A DNA stretch of 41,538 nucleotides from a virus. The notes below the pieces were generated by a model. It was not told the DNA's origin and did no database searches. It saw only the letters and a list, made by a program, of their open reading frames with translations. The stretch is taken from IMG/VR virus record IMGVR_UViG_3300045988_148476. One strand, given 5' to 3'. Positions within the stretch are counted from its first letter, which is position 1, and the number at the start of each line of letters is the position of its first letter. This document shows, one piece after another, positions 106 to 41,538 of the stretch. The translations under genes were made by a program, and so were the position numbers.

Positions 106-1290
106 TCAAGCATGTTCCAAAACGTTTTTGCCCACATTTTGCCCACATTCTTCCACGCCCGTCTCCACCTGCACGGCGGCATCGAGCAGACGGGCAACAT
201 CCATCAGGTCGCTGTCGAACAGATCCGCGTACACGTCCAACGTCATGCTCGCGTTCTTGTGGCCCAGCATCCGCTGCAGCGCCTTGACGTTCGCGCCCGC
301 GTGCACGGCCAGCGAGGCGGCGGTGTGCCGCAGGTCATGAGGCGTGGGCCATTCCTCCTTCGGCCAGCCCAGGCGCACCAGCGCGTGATACCACCAGCCG
401 GTCGTCTTCGCCGTGCTCTGCTTCATGATCGGGCCGCCCCGCAGATCACGAAACACCCTTTCGTCCGGCTCGCGTTCCCCGCATATCGGTTTCAGCGCTT
501 CCATGACGATGAGAGGCATGGGCACGTCGCGTTCCTCGCTGTTCTTCGGAGTGCCCTCGACCCATCTTGCCCCGACGTACACGAGGTTGCCGCCCACATG
601 CAGCACTCCCCTGTCGAAGTCCAGATCGTGGGCTTTTAACGCCGCCGCCTCGCCCCAACGCAACCCGCAGAACCCCAACGTCAGCACGAGCGCCCGCCGC
701 TCCGCTCCCAGATGCTTTCCTCTGGCGCATTCGTCGGCGAATGCGAGCAGACGGGATATGGGCAGGTACACGCGGCGGCTCTTGCGCCTCGGCGGTTTGG
801 GGAGTTCGACGTTTTCACAGGGGTTGTCGAGTATGAGCCTGTCCCGGACGGCCATGCGGCAGATGCCGAGCATGGTCTGGTATGGACGGCTTACGGATGA
901 AGCGCCGGCGCTCGCGATGATGTCGCTGATCCACGCCTGGACCTCGGCGCGGGTGATGGTGCCGATCCGACGATCGGCCCAACGCTCCTCGCAGTAGAGT
1001 CGCCATGCTTCCGTGGCGTTGACCCGCGTGGTTTCCTTCCAAAACGGCCATTTTTCCTTCAGCCACTGCTCATACAGGTCTCCGACGAGCCGTTTGCCGC
1101 CTTCCGGATCCACGTAGCTGTTGGTTGCCTTGGCGATGGTGACGTGTTCTGCCGCCCAGTTTTCGGCGTCGATTTTACGGCGGAAGCCCCTCTTGTCGGT
1201 CTGCGTGCCATCCGGTTTCCGGTAGCGGACTCGATACCTGTTTTCGCCTTTGGCCGTCCTGTATCTGGTGATGTTCGCCATGATTTTCAC
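106..1290 (-). CDS. int: Tyrosine recombinase / phage integrase
   Basis: 394-aa ORF. Catalytic residues occur in order: R (GLRWGEAAAL), HxxR (HDLRHTAAS), H (LGHKN), Y (LDVYADL). N-terminal arm-binding-like segment ITRYRTAKGENRYRVRYRKPDG. Start is GTG at 1290 or, more likely, ATG at 1281 (MANITRY). Confidence 0.93.
   Translation of the reverse strand: MKIMANITRYRTAKGENRYRVRYRKPDGTQTDKRGFRRKIDAENWAAEHVTIAKATNSYVDPEGGKRLVGDLYEQWLKEKWPFWKETTRVNATEAWRLYCEERWADRRIGTITRAEVQAWISDIIASAGASSVSRPYQTMLGICRMAVRDRLILDNPCENVELPKPPRRKSRRVYLPISRLLAFADECARGKHLGAERRALVLTLGFCGLRWGEAAALKAHDLDFDRGVLHVGGNLVYVGARWVEGTPKNSEERDVPMPLIVMEALKPICGEREPDERVFRDLRGGPIMKQSTAKTTGWWYHALVRLGWPKEEWPTPHDLRHTAASLAVHAGANVKALQRMLGHKNASMTLDVYADLFDSDLMDVARLLDAAVQVETGVEECGQNVGKNVLEHA
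125..149. repeat. 25-nt repeat TTTTTGCCCACATTTTGCCCACATT (tandem TTTTGCCCACA x2); candidate integrase arm-type site (P' side), inside the int 3' end
   Basis: Exact 25/25 match to 41387-41411. The two copies flank the 55-nt core at about 70 nt on each side once the ends are joined. Confidence 0.7.
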
Positions 1291-2250: not shown

Positions 2251-3060
2251 CTATCGATTAACCACGTAATTCGGGTCGGTGACTATATAGGAGTAGTTGT
2301 CCTCCCCGCCGGTGCCGGAATACACGTCTCCGACGTCGCGGAATGCTATGGCAACCATCTTCGCGTCCAATGGAACCTGGAACGGATAGGTGACCGTGCT
2401 GGTCAATCCCGGCTGGAGCTGGGCGTTGCACTCGGGGTTGCCTTCGACCTGATACAGATTCTTGATGGGCGTGTATTTCTGGTTCTTCGAGTTCAACGCG
2501 ACTATCTCATAGGGGTAGCTGCAGGTGATGTCCATCGGACTGCTGGTGTTGTTCGTGACCTCCACCTTGGCCACCCAGTACTTGGTGTTCGCGTCCGGTG
2601 TCTTTGGCCCGTATTGGCCGTTGCTGCATCCGTCGCCGCATGTGTCGAAGCTGATGGTGGGCTGTTCGCCGGCTTCTAGGACCTTCATTTCGACGCCGCC
2701 GCTGACGGCGGTCTCCCCCGTGCCCGAAGCGTCGGTGTTGGATCCCGTGTCGTTGGGATCTTCCTGGGGGTTGAGTTTTTCGTTCGCGTCGGCTAGCTGC
2801 GCTTTGACGGAGTCCAATGATGTATTGAGGTCTTGGATGTCCGACTTCTGCTGGTTGATGATGGGCGTGGCGTACAGGTACATGCCTCCGAGTCCGCCGG
2901 CAAGGCCGACGACCAGTCCTATGGCTGCGGCGATGGCGATGAGGGCCGGTATCGGGAGCTTCTTCTTCGGCGTCGGCTGTGGTGTAAGCGGCATGGTTGC
3001 GGGCTGCGTGCCCTGCGGTGTTGGTGGCTGCTGTGCCTGCATGGGGGTTGACTCGGTCAT
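2251..3060 (-). CDS. Membrane-anchored extracellular beta-sandwich (DUF4352-like) protein; candidate superinfection-exclusion factor
   Basis: P/Q/T-rich N-terminus, one TM helix (IPALIAIAAAIGLVVGLAGGLGG), a coiled segment, then KYWVAKVEVTNNTSSPMDI...LQPGLTSTVTYPFQVP, the pattern typical of DUF4352 Ig-like domains. G+C is lower than in flanking genes. Confidence 0.8.
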   Translation of the reverse strand: MTESTPMQAQQPPTPQGTQPATMPLTPQPTPKKKLPIPALIAIAAAIGLVVGLAGGLGGMYLYATPIINQQKSDIQDLNTSLDSVKAQLADANEKLNPQEDPNDTGSNTDASGTGETAVSGGVEMKVLEAGEQPTISFDTCGDGCSNGQYGPKTPDANTKYWVAKVEVTNNTSSPMDITCSYPYEIVALNSKNQKYTPIKNLYQVEGNPECNAQLQPGLTSTVTYPFQVPLDAKMVAIAFRDVGDVYSGTGGEDNYSYIVTDPNYVVNR

Positions 3061-3077
3061 TGTCTTCTTCTTTCTCG

Positions 3078-3290
3078 CTATTGCCTAGACCACGTTCCGC
3101 AGTCCTGAAGTTTGAGCTGTTGGCCATCCGAGACAGTCACTTGTGGGTAGCCACCGCCTGGAATGTCGTTCTGTACTATGTCGGCTCCATTGTTGACTGT
3201 GATTTCCCAATAGCACTGAGAAGGCACCTGCGAATTAGCACGGTATGTCCCGGCCTCTATTCTTTTATTCCAAAGTTGTATCGCTTCCAT
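3078..3290 (-). CDS. Small hypothetical protein (about 70 aa; ORF open to 3320)
   Basis: Fills the gap between the lipoprotein gene and the 2251-3060 gene on the same strand. Overlaps the lipoprotein 3' end. No recognisable motif. Could instead be a frameshifted continuation of the lipoprotein gene. Confidence 0.4.
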   Translation of the reverse strand: MEAIQLWNKRIEAGTYRANSQVPSQCYWEITVNNGADIVQNDIPGGGYPQVTVSDGQQLKLQDCGTWSRQ

Positions 3291-3855
3291 CAGCGGGACA
3301 TGTCGCCACATCCCGGCCATCGATGGATAGCGTCGCGTTCCACTTGATGCCGGTGCCGCGAATATCCTGGTTGGGAAGCAACGCGTAGAAGGTGCCGTCC
3401 TGAAGCGTCACCAAATCATTCCAGGTTCCGAGATTATTCTGCTTGCTTGTTTCCATGTCGAACACGCCCACAGAGGTTTCATGGGAGTTGACTATGTTTT
3501 TGAAGCCTGCCTGCCATGATTCTCCAGCATCATTTGTGAACATGATGAAATAACCGTAGAAGTCGCTCGTTTGTATCAGATTGTTGTTCGGTATTTCAAC
3601 TTGAATTTTGTATGAGTTGGTGTTGACCTTCACCGATTGGAGTCTTGGATCAGAGCCGGAACATTCGCCGTGCAGGCCATTATCAATCAATGGTTCCTGA
3701 CCGTCTTCAGAATTGGTCCCTTTAATGGCATCTTCGGCTTCCGACTGGGTTTCAGCTTTGTCGGCGGCTGTCGATTCCTTACTCACGCCACAGGCAGTGA
3801 GGAATCCGAACATTAATAGCAATGCTACAACTGCGGTTACTTTCTTTCCGTGCAT
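3265..3855 (-). CDS. Secreted lipoprotein (prophage-expressed; candidate superinfection-exclusion factor)
   Basis: Signal peptide with lipobox MHGKKVTAVVALLLMFGFLTAC-G. Mature part is beta-rich. Lower G+C. Sits in the repressor operon. Confidence 0.85.
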   Translation of the reverse strand: MHGKKVTAVVALLLMFGFLTACGVSKESTAADKAETQSEAEDAIKGTNSEDGQEPLIDNGLHGECSGSDPRLQSVKVNTNSYKIQVEIPNNNLIQTSDFYGYFIMFTNDAGESWQAGFKNIVNSHETSVGVFDMETSKQNNLGTWNDLVTLQDGTFYALLPNQDIRGTGIKWNATLSIDGRDVATCPADGSDTTLE

Positions 3856-4259
3856 GTCTTATCCTTTCCCTGCGCAACAGCTCCGTTATGCAGCAGTTCT
3901 TTGTAATCTTCCACGACCTGTACGGTCACGTCGAGCGCCTGTGCGATGAGGAAACTGTCTCCCTCGTACATTTGTTCGGCGATTGCGTATTCGGTCGGGT
4001 TGATGAGTCGGAGCACGGTTTCGCGTCTGGCTCGTCTCTCGGCTTTTGACCCGTTCGGGTCGCAGCCTCGATCGTGGTGCCTAGCGTGAGCAAGCTCGTG
4101 GGCGAGCGTGCAACGTCGGGCGAAGTCTGGGAGCGTCTCGTCGATGATGATGAGTCGCGTGGGTTCGTAGTAGCAGCCGCAGCGTCCGGGCGATAGTTCT
4201 CGTTCCCGGACTTTGACGCCGAGTCTCAACGCTTCGGCGAGTAGATCCTCATATCCCAT
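3837..4259 (-). CDS. ImmA/IrrE-family zinc metallopeptidase (anti-repressor protease)
   Basis: HExxH motif in TLAHELAHARHHD. Lies directly downstream (8 nt) of the XRE repressor, as in immR-immA modules. Start chosen at MGYEDLL (4259). Confidence 0.85.
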   Translation of the reverse strand: MGYEDLLAEALRLGVKVRERELSPGRCGCYYEPTRLIIIDETLPDFARRCTLAHELAHARHHDRGCDPNGSKAERRARRETVLRLINPTEYAIAEQMYEGDSFLIAQALDVTVQVVEDYKELLHNGAVAQGKDKTCTERK

Positions 4260-4266
4260 AAAGCCT

Positions 4267-4647
4267 CTATTCGCGGGGTGTGGTGGCTTCGTTTTCCTTG
4301 TTTGGGTCGTCGTTCGCGGCCACGTCGAACTGTTCTGGGTTGGCGGCAATGCGGTCGGCCATCTCGTCGGCGGCGCGTTCCGCCTCGATGCGGCTGGCCT
4401 CGGCGAGTATGTCTCTCACCGTCTGCACGGGGTCAGCGCCGCATACGTCACAGATAAGCAGGAACTCAGAGAGCCTGACAGGAGCTTTAAGGCCATTGCG
4501 AATATCGCGCACGCGGTTATAGCCGATAGAACTTTTTGAGGCCCTGTCGACGGCGGAGTTATTCATGCCAGCGCGCTCGATTACCCGATTCATCGCCTTT
4601 GCGGCCACCTCATCTACGAGATTCCGCTCTCTCTTGTTCGTTGCCAT
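4267..4647 (-). CDS. XRE-family (cI-like) phage repressor
   Basis: HTH segment (AGMNNSAVDRASKSSIGYNRVRDIRNG). Divergent from the early operon across an operator-bearing intergenic region. Start at MATNKRE (4647). Confidence 0.85.
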   Translation of the reverse strand: MATNKRERNLVDEVAAKAMNRVIERAGMNNSAVDRASKSSIGYNRVRDIRNGLKAPVRLSEFLLICDVCGADPVQTVRDILAEASRIEAERAADEMADRIAANPEQFDVAANDDPNKENEATTPRE

Positions 4648-4656
4648 ATATGCAAC

Positions 4657-4732
4657 TATAGCAGACACGCCGAGCACTTGCTACAAAATATAGCAGGCGC
4701 TATATTGAATATCAGTTAGAGCAGGCGCTATA
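4657..4732. promoter_or_regulatory. Genetic-switch operators: palindrome TATAGCAGGCGCTATA (4689-4704), near-copy TAGAGCAGGCGCTATA (4717-4732), half-site-like TATAGCAGACACGC (4657-4670)
   Basis: Repeats read directly in the 97-nt divergent region between the repressor start (4647) and the first rightward ORF (4745). Confidence 0.65.
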
Positions 4733-4744
4733 GAGGAGGTCAGA

Positions 4745-4909
4745 ATGAGTGAGGAAATCCGAATCGAGAACCACGAGGAGCCGGGCAGACCGCTGAAGGT
4801 CAGGCGACTGGCCGATGGCCGGGTCGAGGTCCGAATCGGGGACATGGGAATCACCGACACGACCATCACCCTCACCCCCGAAGAATTCGACCAGCTCAAG
4901 AACCTCTGA
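4745..4909 (+). CDS. Small early protein (54 aa), first rightward gene
   Basis: ATG at 4745 after SD AGAGGAGG (4732-4739). Translation is MSEEIRIENHEEPGRPLKVRRLADGRVEVRIGDMGITDTTITLTPEEFDQLKNL. Below the ORF-track cutoff. Confidence 0.5.
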   Translation: MSEEIRIENHEEPGRPLKVRRLADGRVEVRIGDMGITDTTITLTPEEFDQLKNL

Positions 4910-4943
4910 CAGAAGACCCAAGGCAGAAAGGAGACTCAGGCAC

Positions 4944-5258
4944 ATGAGCGAGCCAATCAAACGCAAGGCATCGGCGGCAGGCATCGGACGCGAGCCGGCA
5001 CTGCCGGTCAAACCCGGCATGGATAAGGTCGCCAGCAAACTCACCAGACAGGCGCGCGCCCGGCTACGCCGCGGCAACGTGCCAGACACCCAAGTGGCCC
5101 GCGCTGCCTCGGTCAACCGAATGACCATCCAATCGTTCCGCACCGGCGCGCCACGCAACGACATGAGCCTGAGCATGTTCCTCGCCGTACTCAACGAGAC
5201 CGGCGGCGACCCAGCAAAAGCCATCGCTACCGCGCTCGCTGATAAGGAGGTGGCGTGA
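4944..5258 (+). CDS. HTH DNA-binding protein (Cro/antirepressor-like early regulator)
   Basis: ATG at 4944 after AAAGGAG. HTH segment DTQVARAASVNRMTIQSFRTG. Confidence 0.75.
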   Translation: MSEPIKRKASAAGIGREPALPVKPGMDKVASKLTRQARARLRRGNVPDTQVARAASVNRMTIQSFRTGAPRNDMSLSMFLAVLNETGGDPAKAIATALADKEVA

Positions 5259-14966: not shown

Positions 14967-15003
14967 TTGTTTGTCACACACAATTGCAGTGGCAGAAGTG
15001 TCG

Positions 15004-15034
15004 AAAAACCCAGCTCATGTGGCTGGGTTTTCGC
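15004..15034 (+). terminator. Rho-independent terminator ending the early operon
   Basis: AAACCCAGC-tcatgtg-GCTGGGTTT (15006-15014 / 15022-15030) followed by TTCG. Confidence 0.75.
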
Positions 15035-15159
15035 GTATCTGACCTCTAGGTGTTCCGGCCAATCCCCAGCGGCCGGAGCACCAAACCCCCGATATCGATG
15101 TAGAATCGATGACATAACCGTAAACTACATTGGTGTCGTTCTAGCTGGGGAGCAACGAT

Positions 15160-16206
15160 ATGGTCAGGAGCACTGTCGACTACTACACTTTCAACGTTAA
15201 GCCAAGAAAAAAGAGCCCCAATATTCCTCGCAGTGCCGTGAACCTTGGGAACGGACGCAGCATACTCCCCTACCTATATGGATACATCGATTATCAGCGT
15301 GGAAGAATTATCAAAGAAGAACGCAAGCAGCGCCTCTATGCGGTCCGTAACGTTGAAATTCACGGTCGCCTCATACTGATTGAGCTGATGTCCGGACAGT
15401 ACGGCGAGGAAAGCCAGCTGATGAACATGTTGGACGGGTCGGTCACGGACATCCCATCCGACCAAGCAGCAGTAAAGACCGTCCGTGTTGTATTTGCTTG
15501 TCCCATAGCGGATGGTGCGACTAATGCGATATTCGCTATTGAACATGTGGACTCGATTAATGGATATTACTTTATTCAAGATTTTGCCAAGTGCATAAGA
15601 AAAATATTCAGTGATTCAAACTCTCCGATTCATTCCATTTTGGAAAAAGAGGCATGGTTCGACTCAAGCAGCCTTGTGTCAATGGCAATACCCATCGGTT
15701 CGACGGATCAGCAAATCACATTGGATAACGGCATAGCCGACGAAGATGTTGAGCGAACCTTCGGCCGCATGTCCTTGATTATCAACCCGCCGAAAGGTAG
15801 CGCCAGCTTCGACCCGAGATTCTGGAAAAAGATGTTGAAGCACACATTGGAGAAGGCAGGCATGCTGACTATCCCGGCCCTCGATAATGACACCGTCGAG
15901 AAAACCAACGTATCCGTAACCGCAATCGGCGCAGACAACCGTCGTAAGACCTTCACCATAGGCAATGAGAAAAGCCCGAAAGTACGTGAACTGATTACCG
16001 ACTACGGACAGCCAAGACTCGATAATGGTGCGCTACGACGCCATCTCGCCGATTCAATCCTCGATAAATATGCAGAAAGCCAAATTAAACTCCAATCCGG
16101 ATGGGATAAGGGACAGCTTGGAGAAGAGCTGATACCGAAAGGAGAAATCGACTGGGCCAATCTTGTTGAGCCCAAGCCGGAGGAAAACAATCATGCCGAG
16201 GACTAA
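15160..16206 (+). CDS. Uncharacterised 348-aa soluble protein (moron gene A)
   Basis: ATG at 15160, 7 nt after GGGGAG. G+C is clearly lower (sampled 33-40%) than the phage backbone. No family motif that I can assign. Confidence 0.85.
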   Translation: MVRSTVDYYTFNVKPRKKSPNIPRSAVNLGNGRSILPYLYGYIDYQRGRIIKEERKQRLYAVRNVEIHGRLILIELMSGQYGEESQLMNMLDGSVTDIPSDQAAVKTVRVVFACPIADGATNAIFAIEHVDSINGYYFIQDFAKCIRKIFSDSNSPIHSILEKEAWFDSSSLVSMAIPIGSTDQQITLDNGIADEDVERTFGRMSLIINPPKGSASFDPRFWKKMLKHTLEKAGMLTIPALDNDTVEKTNVSVTAIGADNRRKTFTIGNEKSPKVRELITDYGQPRLDNGALRRHLADSILDKYAESQIKLQSGWDKGQLGEELIPKGEIDWANLVEPKPEENNHAED

Positions 16207-16753
16207 AGACCATAACAATGGCATATTATGGCAGTACATCCTCAGCCTGTGCCCCAAGATACACAACACAAGAAGCATCGCATGGAAATACGTATTCCGA
16301 GAAATACTCATTCCATCGGTTGCTGCATATCTTGACTTTCGCTTCTCCCGACTTGCATTGAACGCAGACATCATCGTCTCGGCTTTGGGGGTCCTTGGAG
16401 GCCTTCTGTTTGCGCATGCGATCTTCGTTTTCGAATTGCGAATGACGTACAACGCAAACCTACGGGAAAGAATCAGAAACAAAGAGATACAGGCAGAAAA
16501 CACAAAACTGACCAGACTCATCAACGATATGTTCTATAGTGTCGTCTACTCATCCGCATTGGCTCTGGGGATTACACTTGCCGTGGCCATGGGATCTTCC
16601 CTTGGCGTATACGACACACTGCCGCAGATAGGGAAAAAACTGATATCGGCGGCGATTGTATGGCTAATGACACACTTAGCATTCTGCATTTATCGAGTTC
16701 TCAAAACCACATCCGGCGCATACGGAGAACTACGAAAATCAAGAATCGCATAA
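16193..16753 (+). CDS. Uncharacterised 186-aa three-TM membrane protein (moron gene B)
   Basis: ATG at 16193, 8 nt after GGAGGA, overlapping the end of gene A by 14 nt. TM helices: IIVSALGVLGGLLFAHAIFVF, MFYSVVYSSALALGITLAVAMG, LISAAIVWLMTHLAFCIYRVL. Confidence 0.8.
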   Translation: MPRTKDHNNGILWQYILSLCPKIHNTRSIAWKYVFREILIPSVAAYLDFRFSRLALNADIIVSALGVLGGLLFAHAIFVFELRMTYNANLRERIRNKEIQAENTKLTRLINDMFYSVVYSSALALGITLAVAMGSSLGVYDTLPQIGKKLISAAIVWLMTHLAFCIYRVLKTTSGAYGELRKSRIA

Positions 16754-16814
16754 TGTCAACAACGAGATAGCAATGTGGTTCATCTGACAGTCGAAGGAGA
16801 TATCGTGATGACCT

Positions 16815-17162
16815 ATGGGGCCACGGGGCATGAGGGGCATGGGACACGGCAGACAGCGAACTAACTGGAACTCCAGCAACAGAGGTTCACGACTGCCGGA
16901 TGACTGGCCCGAGCGCAGGGCCAAGGTGCGCGGACGGGCTCATGGTCTGTGCCAAGCGAAACAGCATGTTCCCGAATGCGATGGAATCGGCACTGACTGC
17001 GACCACATCATCGCCGGCGACGACCACAGCCTTGACAACTTGCAATGGCTGTCGCATCCTTGTCATAAAGCGAAAACGGAGCGTGAGAACGCAGAGAGGA
17101 ACGCCAAGCGCAAGCGAATGCGAAAACATCCGGAGGAACGTTTCCCCGGCCTGCTCGACTGA
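16815..17162 (+). CDS. HNH endonuclease (packaging-associated, upstream of terminase)
   Basis: CQAKQHVPECDGIGTDCDHIIAGDDHSLDNLQWLSHPCHKAKT. This is the typical HNH-TerS-TerL arrangement of cos-type HK97-like phages. Confidence 0.85.
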   Translation: MGPRGMRGMGHGRQRTNWNSSNRGSRLPDDWPERRAKVRGRAHGLCQAKQHVPECDGIGTDCDHIIAGDDHSLDNLQWLSHPCHKAKTERENAERNAKRKRMRKHPEERFPGLLD

Positions 17163-20294: not shown

Positions 20295-21688
20295 CCACCG
20301 GTTACGCGGATGAGAAATCGGCCGCGAAAGCATTGCGGGAGCTGCTGCTGCCCGCCTACGGGGAGGAGATCACCCGTTTGAACCGCATCGACCGCTGGTG
20401 GCGGTGGAATCCGAAACCGATCCGCCTGCGCAGAGCCACCCCCGAGCATCGCATGCTTAGGGATATGGGTCATACGCCATGGCTGAGGCTTGTGGTGACC
20501 ACAATCTCCCAGACCCTCTACTTGGAGGGTGTGGATATTCCCGGCAAGCAGGACACGGATTCGGCCCGCCTGTTCTGGCATCCATGGGTGGCCAGCCGCA
20601 TGGGCCGCCGCCAGGTCGCCTTGCATAAGGCGGCCATCGCCTACGGTTGCGCGTATGCGACCGTGCGCGCCGTGGAATCCCCGGAAGGCGGCGTAAGGGC
20701 CGGAATCGACTGCTGGTCGCCGCGCGAAAGCATCGCCCTATATGACGATCCGGCACGCGACACATATCCGCAGGTGTTCATGCGTCGCCGGCGACTGTCC
20801 GACACCGTGGACTCATACGAGCTATGGGATGCATGGAACGTATGGCAGTGGAGACGCGAGCAAGGTGTCTACGAGTTCGTGGACTGCACGCCGCATCTGG
20901 CGACCGATTCCTACGGGCAACCGGTCTGTCCGGTCATCCGATACACGAACGACCTCGACCTGCAGGGAAGGGCACCCGGCGAGGTCGAACCGTTCATCCC
21001 CCTTGCCAACCGATTGAACAAGGATAATTACGACCGGCTTCTGGCCCAACACTACAATTCGTGGAAAGTACGCACCGTCACCGGTCTGGACATGACCGAA
21101 TTGTCGGACGAGCAGCGGGCTGACCGGAAAGCCAAGCTCAGCCAGGAGGATATTCTCGCCGGCGGCGAGGGTGTCCAGTTCGGCACGCTCCCGGAAACCG
21201 CGCTGTCCAGCCTCATCGAGGCGAAACAAGCCGATGTGGAGGAACTCGCCGCGGTCAGCCAGACCCCGACCACCGCGTTCGGCAAAATGGTCAACGTGGG
21301 CGATGCCGGCATAGCCGAAAGCCGCGCCGGTTTCTACGCGAAACGCGATGAACGGCAGAAAAGCTTCGGCGTCAGCCACATGGACGTGCTTCGCTTGGCC
21401 GCTGGCATCGAAGGCCGCATGGACGATGCGCGCAATTTCGACCTGACCCCATTGTGGGAGGATACGGACGTGCGCACCATCAACCAGGCGGTCGATGCCT
21501 TGGGCAAGGCCGCTCAGATGCTCGGCGCGCCCAAGGAGCAATTGTGGGACATGATTCCGGGCGTATCCAAGTCGCGCGCCGACTCATGGCGCGAATGGGT
21601 GGAGAACCATCCGGACGCGGACACGCTCGCCGCGCAGGCGTATCAGGCGCAGCTCGAACCGGCGGTCGATGATGGCGCGAACCAATGA
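20288..21688 (+). CDS. Portal protein
   Basis: 466-aa ORF directly after TerL, overlapping its stop. Acidic C-terminus. Canonical position. Confidence 0.88.
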   Translation: MVTTGYADEKSAAKALRELLLPAYGEEITRLNRIDRWWRWNPKPIRLRRATPEHRMLRDMGHTPWLRLVVTTISQTLYLEGVDIPGKQDTDSARLFWHPWVASRMGRRQVALHKAAIAYGCAYATVRAVESPEGGVRAGIDCWSPRESIALYDDPARDTYPQVFMRRRRLSDTVDSYELWDAWNVWQWRREQGVYEFVDCTPHLATDSYGQPVCPVIRYTNDLDLQGRAPGEVEPFIPLANRLNKDNYDRLLAQHYNSWKVRTVTGLDMTELSDEQRADRKAKLSQEDILAGGEGVQFGTLPETALSSLIEAKQADVEELAAVSQTPTTAFGKMVNVGDAGIAESRAGFYAKRDERQKSFGVSHMDVLRLAAGIEGRMDDARNFDLTPLWEDTDVRTINQAVDALGKAAQMLGAPKEQLWDMIPGVSKSRADSWREWVENHPDADTLAAQAYQAQLEPAVDDGANQ

Positions 21689-22952
21689 CGGTGCCATGCT
21701 CACCGACAAGCACCGGCGTGCGCAGGTCAGGCTCGCCATCACCGCCGACAGCCAGGCCCGCCGCATCTGGGACTCCACGCTTGACCCGAACGATCTGAAA
21801 CGCACGCAGCCGATATGGAAGAACGCCATCCTCCAACTGCTGCAGACTTGGTGGCGGATCAGCGCCCGGACCGCGAACGAGTACCTGCCCCGATTCCGGG
21901 AGGCCGAGACCGGCGACGGCGGCTTCGAGACCGCCATGCCGCGTTTCGATCGCAAACAGGCTGCAAGAAGCATCGACTGGACCGGCGCCACGAACGTGCT
22001 CTGGCACATCGCGCGCGGAGAGACCCAGGAGGCAGCCTACGTGGCGGCGCGAAGCCTGTTCCTCGGAATATTCCACGAGGCCGTGCTCACCGGCGGACGC
22101 ACCACGATAGAAAACTGGGCCAAGAAGGATACGAGAGCCGTGGGCTGGCGGCGAGTCTCCGACGGGAATCCATGCGCGTTCTGCGCGATGCTGGCCACCA
22201 GGGGACCCGTCTACACGAGTGCCGAAAAAGCCGGATTGCGCGCGTCCGACGGACACAAATACCACCCGCATTGCGGGTGCACCGTCGAAATCGTGTACGG
22301 GGACTGGAAGCCCACCGAAAAGGAACAGCAGTGGATCGACGAATACTACAAGGCCGCCGAAAGCCTGCCCTCCAAAACTCCGCGCACCGCCGAGACCGTG
22401 CTTCCGCTCCTGCGCCGCAACGGAACCTTCCGTGACAGTTCGACCATAAGAAGCACTCCGGAGTTCCTTGCGGCCAGACGCGCCCAACGCAAAGCGGCCA
22501 ATAGCCCGGCCGTCAACAACGTACGGACATTGTCGACAGGCAAAACCGCCGTGCGGCATTCCGACGGATATTGGGTCGAAACCGGTGCGAATCCGTCCGC
22601 CGCCGAAAGAACGGTCGCCAAACAGATGACGGACCTCGGACATGATGTCACATTCCGCAAGCCCGTCGACGAGCAGCATGTCAAGACGCCTGACTTCTTC
22701 ATCGACGGAGACACCTGGGAACTGAAAACCCTCCACGGAAGCGGCAAGAACACCGTGCTCAACGCTCTTCGCAAAGCGAAGAGCCAGAGTCCGCGCATCA
22801 TTCTCGACATCACCGACTGCCCGAAACCGATGGAACAGATTGTGGATGATTGCATGAGCAAACTCCAAAGGCCGAACAACAGGATCAGAGAGATCATCCT
22901 GTTCAAGGACGGGGCCATCGAACGGCGTCTCAAAGGGTATACTAAGAGTTAG
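21669..22952 (+). CDS. MuF/SPP1-gp7-like head morphogenesis protein fused to a C-terminal PD-(D/E)xK-like toxin-type domain
   Basis: MuF signature WRRVSDGNPCAFCAMLATRGPVY...HPHCGCT in aa 150-210. A linker follows, then aa ~295-427 with TPDFFIDGDTWELKT (D...ExK) and SPRIILDIT. Confidence 0.85.
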   Translation: MMARTNDGAMLTDKHRRAQVRLAITADSQARRIWDSTLDPNDLKRTQPIWKNAILQLLQTWWRISARTANEYLPRFREAETGDGGFETAMPRFDRKQAARSIDWTGATNVLWHIARGETQEAAYVAARSLFLGIFHEAVLTGGRTTIENWAKKDTRAVGWRRVSDGNPCAFCAMLATRGPVYTSAEKAGLRASDGHKYHPHCGCTVEIVYGDWKPTEKEQQWIDEYYKAAESLPSKTPRTAETVLPLLRRNGTFRDSSTIRSTPEFLAARRAQRKAANSPAVNNVRTLSTGKTAVRHSDGYWVETGANPSAAERTVAKQMTDLGHDVTFRKPVDEQHVKTPDFFIDGDTWELKTLHGSGKNTVLNALRKAKSQSPRIILDITDCPKPMEQIVDDCMSKLQRPNNRIREIILFKDGAIERRLKGYTKS

Positions 22953-38531: not shown

Positions 38532-38929
38532 TGGATTGGGACGCGATCATAGGCGGACTCATGTCAAGTCCGCTGCTCCTGCTCGCCATGGCCGTCATCG
38601 GCAAGCTATGGCCGGACACGCTTCCCACGTTCTCCACATGGCTCTACTCCCACGTGGATCCCGGAAAACTGCCGTTCGACAGCGAGATGAACGCGCATTG
38701 GGCTCAGTCGCGCGAACTCGGTGAACGTCTCGACCGGTTCGAGGCGAACCAGCACGAGGTGCAGAAGGACACCATCAAGAACACTCTGCTGACCCTCATG
38801 TCGGATTCGACGCGAGACCACAGCGAGGCGATCCGCTACGAACTCGACAAGCTCAAGGCCATCAACGCGGACTGCTGGGTCGTCGACGCCGCCGAACAAT
38901 ACCTCCTCGACCGCGTGAAACGGTCGTGA
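38531..38929 (+). CDS. Membrane protein of the lysis region (132 aa, N-terminal TM)
   Basis: ATG at 38531 overlaps the upstream stop, with GGAGGA SD. TM helix LMSSPLLLLAMAVIGKLW. Confidence 0.6.
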   Translation: MDWDAIIGGLMSSPLLLLAMAVIGKLWPDTLPTFSTWLYSHVDPGKLPFDSEMNAHWAQSRELGERLDRFEANQHEVQKDTIKNTLLTLMSDSTRDHSEAIRYELDKLKAINADCWVVDAAEQYLLDRVKRS

Positions 38930-38964
38930 CCATCAAACCAAAACCCAACAGAAGGAGATCAATC

Positions 38965-39402
38965 ATGGCAAACACCGCCAAAGCCGACCACAAGGCCACC
39001 TCGAACATGGCGAAGCTGACGCAGGAGCGAGTCAAGGCCATCGTGCTTTTGATCGTGCAGCTGTTCTCGGTCGTCCAGACCGGCCTGAGTCTGGCCGGCA
39101 TCAGCCAGCTGCCATTCACCTCTGACCAGGTATCCACCGCCATCACGGGCGTGATCGCCGTCATCACCAGCATCTACGCGTGGTGGCGCAACAACAACAT
39201 TACCGCCGCCGCGGTCGCCGGCCAGCGGATCACGGATCGCGTCAAGGCCGGCGCGCAATCCAGCCTGACCAGCATCGACCCGGAGCTCATGCCCACCGCG
39301 ATCCAGCTCGACGCGTCGGGCATCGACCCGGACGTGCTCACCCTCATGGCCGCAAACGCCGCCAACGATACCGACGCCAGTGACGTGGAGGAGTCCAAGT
39401 GA
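38965..39402 (+). CDS. Holin
   Basis: ATG at 38965 after GAAGGAG. Two TM helices (IVLLIVQLFSVVQTGLSLAGI; AITGVIAVITSIYAWW) followed by WRNNNIT and an acidic tail. Directly upstream of the endolysin gene. Confidence 0.8.
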   Translation: MANTAKADHKATSNMAKLTQERVKAIVLLIVQLFSVVQTGLSLAGISQLPFTSDQVSTAITGVIAVITSIYAWWRNNNITAAAVAGQRITDRVKAGAQSSLTSIDPELMPTAIQLDASGIDPDVLTLMAANAANDTDASDVEESK

Positions 39403-40088
39403 GCCGCTTCGACCAATGGGCCGCCTCCAACACGGGAGCATGGCGCGACCTCGACGGAGCCTACGGGGCGCAATGCTGGGACCTTTTCTGCGCATTGTGC
39501 GTCGACCTCATGGGTGCCAGCGTCAGCGACTGCCATACCGCGCGCTCCGGCAAATGGGCGGGCTGGGCCGGCAGCCTATACACGGGATTCCCCACCACCG
39601 ATTGGATCGGCCGGCACTTCACGCGCATCCCCGCCTCGCAGCCCGGTTTGAAGGGCGACGTCATCCTCTGGGGCGGCGACGCCAACCACCCCTGCACTCA
39701 CGTGGCGATCCTCCTGGCCGACGTGAGACCGGGAGCCAGCCCGTACGTGCTCGCCCAGAACGCGGGAGCGACCATGAACGCGCGCCGCATGTGGGAGACG
39801 CCAGCCAGCCTCGGCTACCTGCGGCCGAAAGACCGCAGCTTCATCACAGGAACAACCAACAAGGAGAACAATGATATGAACGGTCTTGCATGCATCGTCC
39901 AACTTAACGACGAAAACGGCTTGCACTATTTCGACGGGAGCAGGCTCCACCCGCTCAAGGACCCGGACGACGTGGTCGCGTTGAACATGGTCGCCAAGGC
40001 GACCATCGGCCACGACCTGCCGGCCCTCAAGGTCGGCAACAACCGGGCACCGTTCGGCACGCGACTACGCGAAGCAGTCGAAGGCTAA
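39399..40088 (+). CDS. Endolysin with N-terminal CHAP domain and small C-terminal domain
   Basis: Catalytic Cys context GAQCWDL and His context CTHVAIL. Linker TGTTNKENND. About 70-aa C-terminal module. Confidence 0.85.
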   Translation: MSRFDQWAASNTGAWRDLDGAYGAQCWDLFCALCVDLMGASVSDCHTARSGKWAGWAGSLYTGFPTTDWIGRHFTRIPASQPGLKGDVILWGGDANHPCTHVAILLADVRPGASPYVLAQNAGATMNARRMWETPASLGYLRPKDRSFITGTTNKENNDMNGLACIVQLNDENGLHYFDGSRLHPLKDPDDVVALNMVAKATIGHDLPALKVGNNRAPFGTRLREAVEG

Positions 40089-40104
40089 AACGCCCACTGA
40101 AACG

Positions 40105-40151
40105 AAAACCGCCCCTCCCCCAGCAGCAACGCTGGACGGAGGGGCGGTTTT
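40105..40151. terminator. Bidirectional rho-independent terminator between the lysis operon and the convergent accessory operon
   Basis: AAAACCGCCCCTCC-19 nt loop-GGAGGGGCGGTTTT. A-run and T-run lie on either side. Confidence 0.85.
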
Positions 40152-40166
40152 CGCGTATCCGCGCGA

Positions 40167-41057
40167 TCAATTGGATGCGTTTATGACCCAAGCATGATCT
40201 CCGCTGGAGATGATCTTCACGGCATTCGATTGGTGAAAAAGAATCATGAACACATGATGGATGGAAAGAACCATATCCTGTATGACGTCATCATCCTCAA
40301 GCGTCTTGACTATAAGTCCCATGCTTCTGGCGGTGTCGATGGAAAAATGCCTGTCATGCATGCCCGAATCCGCATGGGAGGTAAGACGGCTAACGACCTC
40401 ATCTACCTTTTCCGGATTCTCCGCAAACATGTTTTCCTTTAGACTCTTCGAGAGAATCTCAGCCGATACCCTCAAGGCTTTCTCGCTCTCGCCGATGTAG
40501 GCGGGAGGATATTTCCCGATGATAGTGCCCCAGAGGGCGGCCATGCCCGGGTCTTTTCTTACCGATTCCACGGCCTTTTGAAACTCCTCCACGATTCCGC
40601 TTGCCGGGGTGCCGCCGAACTGGGGGTCGGTCGGGCCAATCGATGACTGACGTCCCATGTATATTTCCCGGCAGGCGCAAGCCATCATGGTTCCGCCCGA
40701 CATAGCAAGCTGTGGGACAAAGGCAACCATGTCTCGACCAAAGCAACCATGCAGATAGGATATGACGGATTCGGTGGCCGCCACCGCACCACCCGGCGTG
40801 TGAAGAACCAGATCAAGTCCCTTTGACCGGTCCATGTCCTTGACGGCGTTCATGAAACCGTTCATGTCCAGATCGTTGATACCGGTGTCATCACGGTTCG
40901 GCTTCTGAAGCCAGCTGGAATAATAGCAGATCACGTTTCTGCCACGTTTTGCGGAGAACGCGGCGATGCGTTCCCGAATCATGTGATCCAGCACGGACTC
41001 CTCGCCGTTCTGTTCCCGGCTGTTCACCTCGTCCAAGGTCTCTCCCCACGATGGCAT
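40167..41057 (-). CDS. SDH-family (serine dehydrogenase proteinase, ClpP/SppA-fold) serine protease
   Basis: LVLHTPGGAVAATESV and PQLAMSGGTMMACAC (nucleophile Ser context) match the Clp-fold SDH pattern. 296 aa. Confidence 0.85.
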   Translation of the reverse strand: MPSWGETLDEVNSREQNGEESVLDHMIRERIAAFSAKRGRNVICYYSSWLQKPNRDDTGINDLDMNGFMNAVKDMDRSKGLDLVLHTPGGAVAATESVISYLHGCFGRDMVAFVPQLAMSGGTMMACACREIYMGRQSSIGPTDPQFGGTPASGIVEEFQKAVESVRKDPGMAALWGTIIGKYPPAYIGESEKALRVSAEILSKSLKENMFAENPEKVDEVVSRLTSHADSGMHDRHFSIDTARSMGLIVKTLEDDDVIQDMVLSIHHVFMILFHQSNAVKIISSGDHAWVINASN

Positions 41058-41060
41058 GAG

Positions 41061-41306
41061 TCACGCACCGATCTTGTTGGACGCGGTGGTCGGCCCTGCA
41101 TCATGATTCCATGAGCAGGCTTCCCACAGACTACGAGCGGACATATGCGATGGCCGATTCCATTGCGCGTCGGGAACAATTCTCCTATAGTCATTCAGCA
41201 ACTGTTTTTCGTGCTTGTCCAGTTTCTTTTCCATACGGGTTTCCTGATCCATAACCACAGTGTATCCGGCAAGTATGTAAATCGCCATAATCGCATCAAC
41301 TGCCAT
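41061..41306 (-). CDS. Small N-terminally TM-anchored protein (81 aa), co-operonic with the protease
   Basis: Only 3 nt separate its stop from the protease start. TM helix AIMAIYILAGYTVVM. No clear SD. Confidence 0.55.
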   Translation of the reverse strand: MAVDAIMAIYILAGYTVVMDQETRMEKKLDKHEKQLLNDYRRIVPDAQWNRPSHMSARSLWEACSWNHDAGPTTASNKIGA

Positions 41307-41386
41307 GATAAAGAGCCGCCTGGCCTCCTCAGACTCCGAGAGTCCGATGGGACTTTCGGGTTAGGGAGCGGGTTTCAGGGGCTCAA

Positions 41387-41411
41387 TTTTTGCCCACATT
41401 TTGCCCACATT
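41387..41411. repeat. 25-nt repeat TTTTTGCCCACATTTTGCCCACATT; candidate integrase arm-type site (P side)
   Basis: Exact match to 125-149. Lies 72 nt from the 55-nt core. Confidence 0.7.
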
Positions 41412-41425
41412 TTTCGTAAAAACAG

Positions 41426-41460
41426 GTTAAAAACCGTTAAAACCGGTTAAAACGAAAAAA
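41426..41460. repeat. 10-bp-phased GTTAAAAC repeats / A-tracts between the arm repeat and the core
   Basis: GTTAA starts at 41426, 41436 and 41446, then GAAAAAA at 41454. Inverted orientation relative to the 1301-1355 array. Confidence 0.8.
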
Positions 41461-41483
41461 GCCGCTCAGCCCTACTCCCGCAA

Positions 41484-41538
41484 AGCAAAGCGGCTATTTT
41501 TCAACCCGCTCTCAGCTCAGCGCGTCCTTCAACTTGCT
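41484..41538. repeat. 55-nt terminal direct repeat, right copy
   Basis: Identical to nt 1-55. Confidence 0.9.

Follow-up and report, generated by a model that had tools for sequence, protein, structure and literature searches.

SDH_sah is the former name of the Pfam family PF01972 (SDH_protease), and a two-gene system joining a protein of this family to a small hypothetical protein (HP) is catalogued among defence systems as FS_HP_SDH_sah. This system reportedly stems from the accessory region of enterobacterial phage-inducible chromosomal islands (PICIs), in work of Fillol-Salom and colleagues from 2022, and systems carried by PICIs are said to protect against phages. Here we describe a pair of the same layout in a 41,538-nt stretch of viral DNA (IMG/VR record IMGVR_UViG_3300045988_148476; below, the window), which is the complete, circular genome of a temperate phage whose host is a Bifidobacterium. 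The pair lies on the minus strand beside the phage attachment site (attP). With a probability of roughly 0.55, we consider it a horizontally acquired anti-phage moron of the HP + SDH_sah type, serving superinfection exclusion or abortive infection. The cassette and its borders comprise the following features:

40104-40152: bidirectional intrinsic terminator between the endolysin gene (plus strand) and the protease gene (minus strand)
40167-41057, minus strand: protease gene, 296 aa
41058-41060, minus strand: 3-nt spacer CTC (TGA CTC ATG), both open reading frames (ORFs) in the same frame
41061-41306, minus strand: small partner as the longest ORF, 81 aa
41061-41234, minus strand: likely partner gene ("HP"), 57 aa, MEKKLDKHEKQLLNDYRRIV...SNKIGA, hydrophilic, N-terminal half helical
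41235-41306, minus strand: possible 24-codon N-terminal extension with the "transmembrane (TM)" segment, probably an untranslated leader
41307-41386, minus strand: leader/promoter region, 99% conserved along with the cassette in a related locus (L001)

Two components of FS_HP_SDH_sah are found in the window, a protein of the SDH_sah family and, 3 nt upstream, an adjacent co-oriented gene for a small HP of 57-81 aa. The preliminary description of this DNA knew of no named defence system built on such a pair. DefenseFinder does have one: the profile name FS_HP_SDH_sah appears in a 2026 list of oral-phage DefenseFinder hits (PMC13532340). The Tai paper and the DefenseFinder resource paper make no mention of SDH. 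We infer the identity of the window pair with the validated PICI system. The conserved pairing of the two genes, their mobile-element and defence-island context and their mobility as a unit, all set out below, are consistent with an autonomous accessory module bearing the genomic signature of anti-phage defence. The earlier idea of a defence or exclusion module is thus backed by strong guilt by association in the genomic context and by a homologous system that is already catalogued.

The 296-aa protein matches PF01972 with 75.6 bits (gathering score 31.3) and phrog_11747, a family of unknown function, with an E-value of 9e-76. It contains the motifs LHTPGG (residues 85-90) and AMSGGT (residues 118-123). 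An AlphaFold2 (AF2) model computed with 40 homologues as input reached a predicted local distance difference test score (pLDDT) of 93 and a predicted template modelling score (pTM) of 0.90. When this model was compared with the PDB by Foldseek, ClpP chains ranked top (template modelling scores of 0.55-0.69, normalised to ClpP). Family profile, motifs and ClpP-like fold model bear out the SDH/Clp-fold signature first recognised from the sequence. The protein scored 97.3 bits on the NCBIfam equivalog NF047768 (Clp_like_SDH), under the curated cut-off of 250. Since the E. coli proteins that the Prokaryotic Genome Annotation Pipeline (PGAP) names "SDH family Clp fold serine proteinase" likewise score low (85-95 bits), this shortfall reflects a distinct subfamily shared with the window protein, not exclusion from the family. 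A sequence search of solved structures returned only remote ClpP and NfeD matches and no close relative. The best viral matches by Foldseek in BFVD are giant-virus "serine dehydrogenase proteinases" (0.64-0.66). Among the giant-virus matches, several paralogues occur (Mimivirus LCMiAC01, Marseillevirus LCMAC101, Hyperionvirus, Harvfovirus and Klosneuvirus), and these model-based matches suggest an expansion of the SDH family in Nucleocytoviricota.

The order of the candidate Ser, Asp and His residues, from which the SDH family takes its name, is kept in the window protein: S120, D144 and H234/H237/H267/H268. S120, within AMSGGT, aligns with the catalytic Ser of ClpP and is the candidate nucleophile, while LHTPGG is the counterpart of the ClpP SPGG turn. 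In an alignment of 40 sequences from many phyla 53 columns are invariant, among them S120, H86, D144 (in GPTDPQ), H234, R236, H237, H267 and H268, and every invariant residue of the family is kept in the window protein. H234, R236, H237, H267 and H268 are located in a C-terminal extension of about 110 residues. No signal peptide or TM segment was seen in the 296-aa sequence; a C-terminal TM anchor occurs in one SDH homologue, P0164. Homologues of about 45-55% identity are found in Actinobacteria, Proteobacteria, Bacteroidota, Verrucomicrobiota, Chloroflexota, Spirochaetota and one metagenome-assembled genome (MAG) of the Methanosarcinaceae. The subfamily comprises 664 representatives at E <= 1e-30 among 1.84 billion clusters at 50% identity.

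The pairing with a small upstream gene was examined in 80 IMG/VR loci, 80 GTDB genome loci and several metagenome contigs (~170 loci from many phyla). A same-strand ORF of 45-110 aa ending between -15 and +20 nt from the start codon was found for 93 of 144 SDH genes, compared to 101 of 834 control genes of at least 200 aa from the same loci (odds ratio 13, p 6e-39). Furthermore, a hidden Markov model (HMM) trained on 45 of these small ORFs found 71 matches (E <= 0.01) among 37,285 six-frame ORFs. In 67 cases the match lies directly upstream of an SDH gene, with 22 of these cases in loci outside the training set, and in the remaining 4 it lies directly downstream, so that the gene order is occasionally swapped. 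In P0260, the partner is fused in frame to the N-terminus of the protease in a natural fusion protein whose first 67 residues match the partner of locus L168 with an E-value of 2.6e-7. P0262 has a similar N-terminal extension with weak similarity to known partners; in both P0260 and P0262 the C-terminus is shorter than in full-length family members. No third conserved gene was found at the related loci. The evidence supports the cassette being an autonomous two-gene unit. In the window, the arrangement of stop codon, 3 nt and ATG suggests translational coupling of partner and protease, and two further loci (L009 and L010) have identical spacing. The two-gene minus-strand operon with a 3-nt spacer, as originally described, is directly visible in the sequence.

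The partners follow a common plan, with an N-terminal helix of the form E-I-x-x-x-F/Y-x-x-L-G-I, often followed by F-K-K-C-S-h-h, and a variable tail rich in Ser, Thr and Asn. The helix motif is common to different partner types. Taken from two random loci, proteases share 52% of their residues and partners 14% (10% for shuffled sequences), and by single-linkage clustering the partners fall into at least 8 clusters that have no BLAST links. The protease is thus by far the slower-evolving of the two. None of the partners has a Pfam domain, a DNA-binding domain or a name, and a profile search with the partner alignment among 5.8 billion proteins retrieved merely 35 unnamed proteins of 59-90 aa, without a Pfam domain.

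The window partner had been presented as a small TM protein, which is not supported. In the 81-aa longest ORF the hydrophobic stretch is formed by residues 1-19 and is therefore confined to the optional 24-codon extension. The sole good Shine-Dalgarno sequence is an AGGAA 6 nt before the ATG at 41234 (Met25); a GAGGAGG is spaced 17 nt from the first ATG at 41306. The G+C content at third codon positions (GC3) is 0.46 in codons 1-24 and 0.60 in the remainder. The sole close relative among the 5.8 billion proteins, P0121, is 96% identical, and all 3 substitutions fall at residues 2, 4 and 11. Moreover, the partners in the related Bifidobacterium prophages L002-L007 are 42% identical and have no hydrophobic segment. 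Based on the AGGAA spacing, the GC3 of codons 1-24, the sites of the P0121 substitutions and the non-hydrophobic partners of L002-L007, translation most likely starts at Met25 and would yield a soluble, hydrophilic 57-aa product. In most partner ORFs elsewhere, no window of 19 residues is hydrophobic (the highest mean Kyte-Doolittle value is < 1); the exceptions are few and lie at the N-terminal end of longest-ORF calls. Hence, of the conserved small TM partner that had been anticipated, the small partner is conserved and its TM segment is not. Since protease and partner both look cytoplasmic, and hydrophilicity is general in the partner family, the proposed membrane tethering is not supported, and a role in modification of the envelope was rejected on the same grounds.

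The genomic neighbourhoods of the pair are those of mobile elements and defence islands. The commonest neighbour is a tyrosine integrase (31 loci), located either upstream on the same strand, as in the window, or downstream in convergent orientation. In related Bifidobacterium prophages, the protease gene is found at the integrase/attachment site (att) junction or follows lysin and holin. Of 61 cases on IMG/VR contigs of at least 20 kb, 31 have the pair no more than 5 kb from a contig end, with 17.8 expected (p 3e-4). Outside phages, three Fibrobacter genomes carry the pair between hsdS and hsdR of type I restriction-modification (R-M) operons. In a Limisphaerales MAG (L157) the order is hsdS, pair, GmrSD/DUF4268, deaminase/ATPase and hsdR, and in an Opitutales MAG (L158) it is hsdM, hsdS, pair and Schlafen/AlbA_2 ATPase. 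HsdS subunits account for 6 of 136 immediate neighbours in the GTDB loci, which we judge, without a formal control, to be far above chance. An Agarivorans island has the pair beside a SocA/RelA_SpoT toxic small alarmone synthetase (toxSAS) module, and at one further locus it is placed between insertion sequence (IS) elements. The neighbourhood analysis proposed earlier, which was to look for prophage ends and defence islands, thus gave an excess near contig ends and defence-gene neighbours. A consistent link of the homologues to head assembly was not seen, their neighbours being integrases, R-M genes and toxin-antitoxin genes.

The pair is also present in phages of other hosts. In Porphyromonas phages it lies beside HicAB within the structural-gene block, in a Shewanella Mu-like phage it follows the late activator C and precedes the lysis genes, and in Gordonia phage BeeGee it lies past the tail genes, near the immunity region. 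The Enterobacter form of the locus is matched in 129 of 5,426 complete E. coli genomes (~2%); E. coli DNA gave no match to the Klebsiella form. In E. coli Nissle 1917 and 2022CK-00450 the Q antiterminator gene is followed by genes for an HP of 66-68 aa and the SDH protease and then by holin, with a methyltransferase gene inserted between protease and holin in Nissle 1917. The Nissle 1917 pair belongs to a lambdoid prophage (L185, chromosome positions 2064095-2065213) and occupies the slot of the Shiga toxin genes in Stx phages. Its protease is 40% identical to the window protease (E 2e-69), and its 68-aa partner belongs to the main partner cluster. E. coli EC14 carries a 66-aa HP and SDH between the lysis/bor genes and terminase, and E. 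coli YPE10 has its SDH gene in this slot too, preceded by a gap without an annotated partner. YPE10 and EC14 also encode a separate S49 head protease. In a 42.8-kb circular phage-like replicon of Enterobacter asburiae (L184), an unannotated SDH gene at 3001-3828, between Q and holin, aligns as three fragments, apparently a frameshifted pseudogene.

In the window, the cassette is sharply delimited. The bidirectional terminator at its lysis-gene side, already noted in the preliminary description, folds with -44.8 kcal/mol on the plus strand and -48.1 on the minus strand (z-scores -7.4 and -7.1; 0 of 200 shuffles as stable), and the hairpin is followed by a T-run in both directions. The protease gene has a G+C content of 0.54 and a GC3 of 0.65. 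With a GC3 of 0.60-0.65, versus 0.78-0.89 in phage core genes, the cassette is a compositional outlier, in agreement with the partly low G+C content noticed before. Two related loci from other Bifidobacterium prophages, L001 and L018, are 99-100% identical to the window from 40108 to the att core, and none of this identity is retained past the terminator. These alignments indicate that the cassette moves as one unit, with the terminator and the att core as breakpoints. In the host flank of L001, positions 4197-5100 hold four copies of a ~225-nt repeat, each beginning ...CCTTAAATAAA...CGCAGAAAATCAACGTT. These repeats are bounded on one side by the prophage junction and on the other by a Schlafen/AlbA_2 ATPase gene, with an ApeA-like HEPN gene just past the ATPase gene.

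The other border of the cassette is the attachment site, which is surrounded by the following features:

106-1290, minus strand: tyrosine integrase (phrog_1 integrase, E 7e-69)
41484-41538 (= 1-55) plus 56-61: att core, common to integrated junctions
41387-41411 and 125-149: 25-nt repeat TTTTTGCCCACATTTTGCCCACATT in two identical copies, flanking the att core on both sides
41415-41452: three (C/G)GTTAAAA repeats with 10-bp phasing, attP arm
41455-41500, minus strand: hairpin with T-run, inverted repeat I3 (12-nt arms, 92% complementary)
38926-39402, plus strand: holin, lysis gene
39399-40088, plus strand: endolysin, lysis gene, 5' neighbour of the terminator

The window has an exact 55-bp terminal repeat (1-55 = 41484-41538) and is therefore a circular assembly; an exact 55-bp overlap is the typical sign of an assembly at k = 55 from a circular molecule. 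At the junctions of L014 and L001 the match to the window comprises 41533-41538 and 1-61/66. Because these integrated copies diverge beyond those positions, the att core is placed at this point, where a host gene has its 3' end; no tRNA was found at the site. The TTTTTGCCCACATTTTGCCCACATT repeats are, from their position, candidate arm-type sites of the integrase, and the copy at 125-149 falls within the integrase coding sequence. Across the circular junction the integrase is the upstream same-strand neighbour of the cassette, which itself abuts attP, as expected for the accessory moron slot proposed at the outset. The hairpin at 41455-41500 would end an integrase transcript arriving from upstream on the minus strand just ahead of the cassette. 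A MAG contig from a Bifidobacterium sp. matches ~1.4 kb of the cassette at 98% identity, with a 100% identical protease. GenBank phages gave no megablast match to the cassette region.

Elsewhere in the genome, the lysogeny region encodes an ImmA/IrrE-type M78 metallopeptidase (3840-4349, minus strand). This gene and an unknown 196-aa ORF at 3265-3855 make up a second low-G+C stretch (3251-4350, minus strand) that is probably part of the lysogeny switch. A low-G+C island at 15001-17000 (plus strand; 0.46-0.52 vs 0.61 for the genome) in the early/replication region, whose ORFs at 15160-16206 (348 aa) and 16163-16753 (196 aa) have no Pfam match, is likely a further acquired accessory cassette. 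The head genes extend from 18.4 to 24.6 kb and encode terminase, portal, a MuF/VG15-like head protein, scaffold and the major capsid protein. The gene after portal (21669-22949, plus strand) matches both phrog_193 "head maturation protease" and Pfam VG15, which makes the earlier statement that the head module has no prohead protease doubtful. Its product also has a C-terminal CdiA_C toxin domain (residues 339-416, E 3e-18) and looks like a MuF-type head protein bearing a polymorphic-toxin tip.

For the action of the pair we propose a toxin-antitoxin-like switch, because the two genes are coupled with the partner usually upstream, the partner can be fused to the N-terminus of the protease, the partners share a helix and differ in a hypervariable tail, and the protease is conserved and mobile across phyla. 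The effector would be a cytoplasmic ClpP-fold serine protease with S120 as nucleophile, D144 and one of the invariant C-terminal His residues. The co-translated partner would bind the protease, probably via its more conserved N-terminal helix near the protease N-terminus, and keep it inactive as an inhibitor or pseudo-substrate, or else set its recognition. Upon infection by a second phage, a phage factor would engage the variable tail, or a labile partner would be depleted, and the block would be relieved. The freed protease could then cleave a conserved cellular or phage protein and halt the infection. In its most specific form, in which a hypervariable sensor or pseudo-substrate plugs the conserved ClpP-fold protease until a phage cue removes the plug and a near-universal cellular target is cut, this proposal is tentative and less likely than not. 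If it is true, the pair would be a protease-based toxin-antitoxin-like immune switch that spans Actinobacteria, Proteobacteria and Archaea and has giant-virus relatives, and would define a new mechanistic class of abortive infection. A literature search for the mechanism of the HP + SDH_sah system found none, and we know of no published one.

Several observations weigh against assigning the window pair to the HP + SDH_sah defence systems and against this mode of action. The window partner clusters with Bifidobacterium prophage versions only, and homology to the enterobacterial HP was found neither by BLAST nor by HMM nor by HHalign. Single-linkage BLAST kept it separate from the main family that includes the E. 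coli HP. Its score against the HMM of the main partner family, built without the window and L002 partners, was not above that of shuffles, an iterative HMM search of the partner family converged without it, and HHalign to the main family gave P = 0.018 over 10 columns, which is not significant. As it is unlinked to the main family, it is assigned as the partner by its position, size and coupling and by its Bifidobacterium relatives. The AF2 model of the partner alone (pLDDT 54) has an N-terminal helix followed by a low-confidence or disordered tail, and it is purely by reasoning that we infer an inhibitor or sensor role for it. Furthermore, PADLOC-DB v2 profiles matched neither protein and include no corresponding model, and a promoter scan of the cassette returned 0 consensus sites.

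Other functions of the pair have to be weighed against an anti-phage moron. The hypervariable partner C-terminus next to a very conserved protease, and the helix motif common to the partner types, would also suit a direct, non-abortive immunity in which the variable partner recognises incoming phage proteins and delivers them to the protease. The defence-island context is the same for both, and nothing separates such a delivery role from that of an inhibitor or sensor; a largely disordered protein of 57-70 aa is, however, a small platform for recognising folded targets, and we regard this version as unlikely. Late-operon orientation behind Q (lambdoid phages) or C (Mu-like phages) counts against an anti-phage role in that it fits a function in lytic growth too, namely a late protease that degrades host proteins (of defence or stress responses) or tunes lysis, with the small protein as co-factor. 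The E. coli lambdoid pair, in late-transcript orientation directly after Q or past the lysis genes, and the positions after C in the Mu-like phage and inside the structural block of the Porphyromonas phages speak for it. However, the Q-S and post-lysis slots are classic moron slots as well, and non-phage sites exist in type I R-M operons, at the IS-flanked locus and in the integrative island with toxSAS. In the window the cassette faces the lysis genes in convergent orientation, is separated from them by a strong terminator and abuts attP, a layout typical of morons expressed in the lysogen, and a lytic-growth function is rather improbable here.

Frequent adjacency to an integrase and an att site would also be expected of an ImmA-like regulatory protease that cleaves a repressor or the small protein and thereby controls induction, excision or transfer, and a small protein combined with a protease resembles the established ImmR/ImmA logic. 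This is very unlikely given that the partners have neither a DNA-binding domain nor a Pfam match, that the pairs within R-M operons lack any integrase and that the phage already has the M78 peptidase. The leader-like conserved N-terminus and the variable Ser/Thr/Asn-rich C-terminus of the partner recall a precursor peptide whose leader is removed by the protease to release a variable C-terminal peptide, as in ribosomally synthesised and post-translationally modified peptides (RiPPs) or signalling. We find this hardly credible, as the neighbourhood shows no conserved modification enzyme, exporter, receptor or signal peptide and embedding in defence islands would be unexpected. The probability that the window protease is a virion prohead (head-maturation) protease is close to negligible. 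Its similarity to such profiles is weak (phrog_53, E 1e-7; NF045542, 25 bits vs a cut-off of 120), it is encoded on the opposite strand 17 kb away from a head module that has the phrog_193 candidate and a scaffold, the E. coli prophages with the pair have a separate S49 head protease, and many homologues lie outside phages. The context analysis effectively refutes a head protease, in line with the earlier view that the gene has no virion role, since its homologues are not tied to head genes either.

As an anti-phage moron, the cassette would be an actinobacterial member of a catalogued defence system with an unrecognisably divergent partner, which is new here. It would extend the range of HP + SDH_sah to Bifidobacterium prophages, which bears on the phage resistance of gut commensals and probiotic strains. 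The comparative picture yields testable hypotheses for a ClpP-fold protease as immune effector and could guide work on the mechanism. The presence of the pair in E. coli Nissle 1917 and in ~2% of complete E. coli genomes makes the genetics easy.

Compared to known proteases, the window protein shares a common core fold with the self-compartmentalising serine proteases ClpP (MEROPS S14) and SppA and lambda gpC (S49), with the Foldseek scores given above, and its profile E-values to ClpP are ~1e-6 at best. Its candidate nucleophile aligns with the ClpP Ser and is part of a G-x-S-x-G-like turn, and LHTPGG corresponds to the SPGG-like oxyanion motif; in contrast, D144 (GPTDPQ) occupies the site of the ClpP His motif. 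It differs from ClpP and SppA also by the additional ~110-residue C-terminal domain with invariant His and Arg residues and by having no ATPase partner. The NfeD (1510-N)/stomatin operon likewise combines a ClpP-fold protease with a dedicated partner gene, and the NfeD1b_N profile scored 31 bits on the window protease, below its cut-off of 40. However, the window pair has no TM or OB-fold domains and no stomatin neighbour, and the Lys that forms the catalytic Ser-Lys dyad of NfeD is not conserved in the SDH alignment; an NfeD/stomatin-type membrane protease was rejected.

In mode of action only, the pair can be compared with Lit, a protease that cuts EF-Tu in response to the T4 Gol peptide, and with CapRel, a toxin-antitoxin defence with a sensing antitoxin. 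Neither is related in sequence or fold, Lit being a zinc metalloprotease and CapRel a tRNA pyrophosphokinase, and the likeness would consist in an effector enzyme, latent and encoded by a prophage or mobile element, a fast-evolving small regulatory element and a self-contained unit of one or two genes. From FS_HP_SDH_sah itself the window pair differs in its actinobacterial host, Bifidobacterium, in a partner from a separate sequence cluster and in its place beside attP instead of a PICI accessory region. What the two have in common is a make-up of two genes, one for a small HP and one for a PF01972 protease, and a location on mobile elements related to phages.

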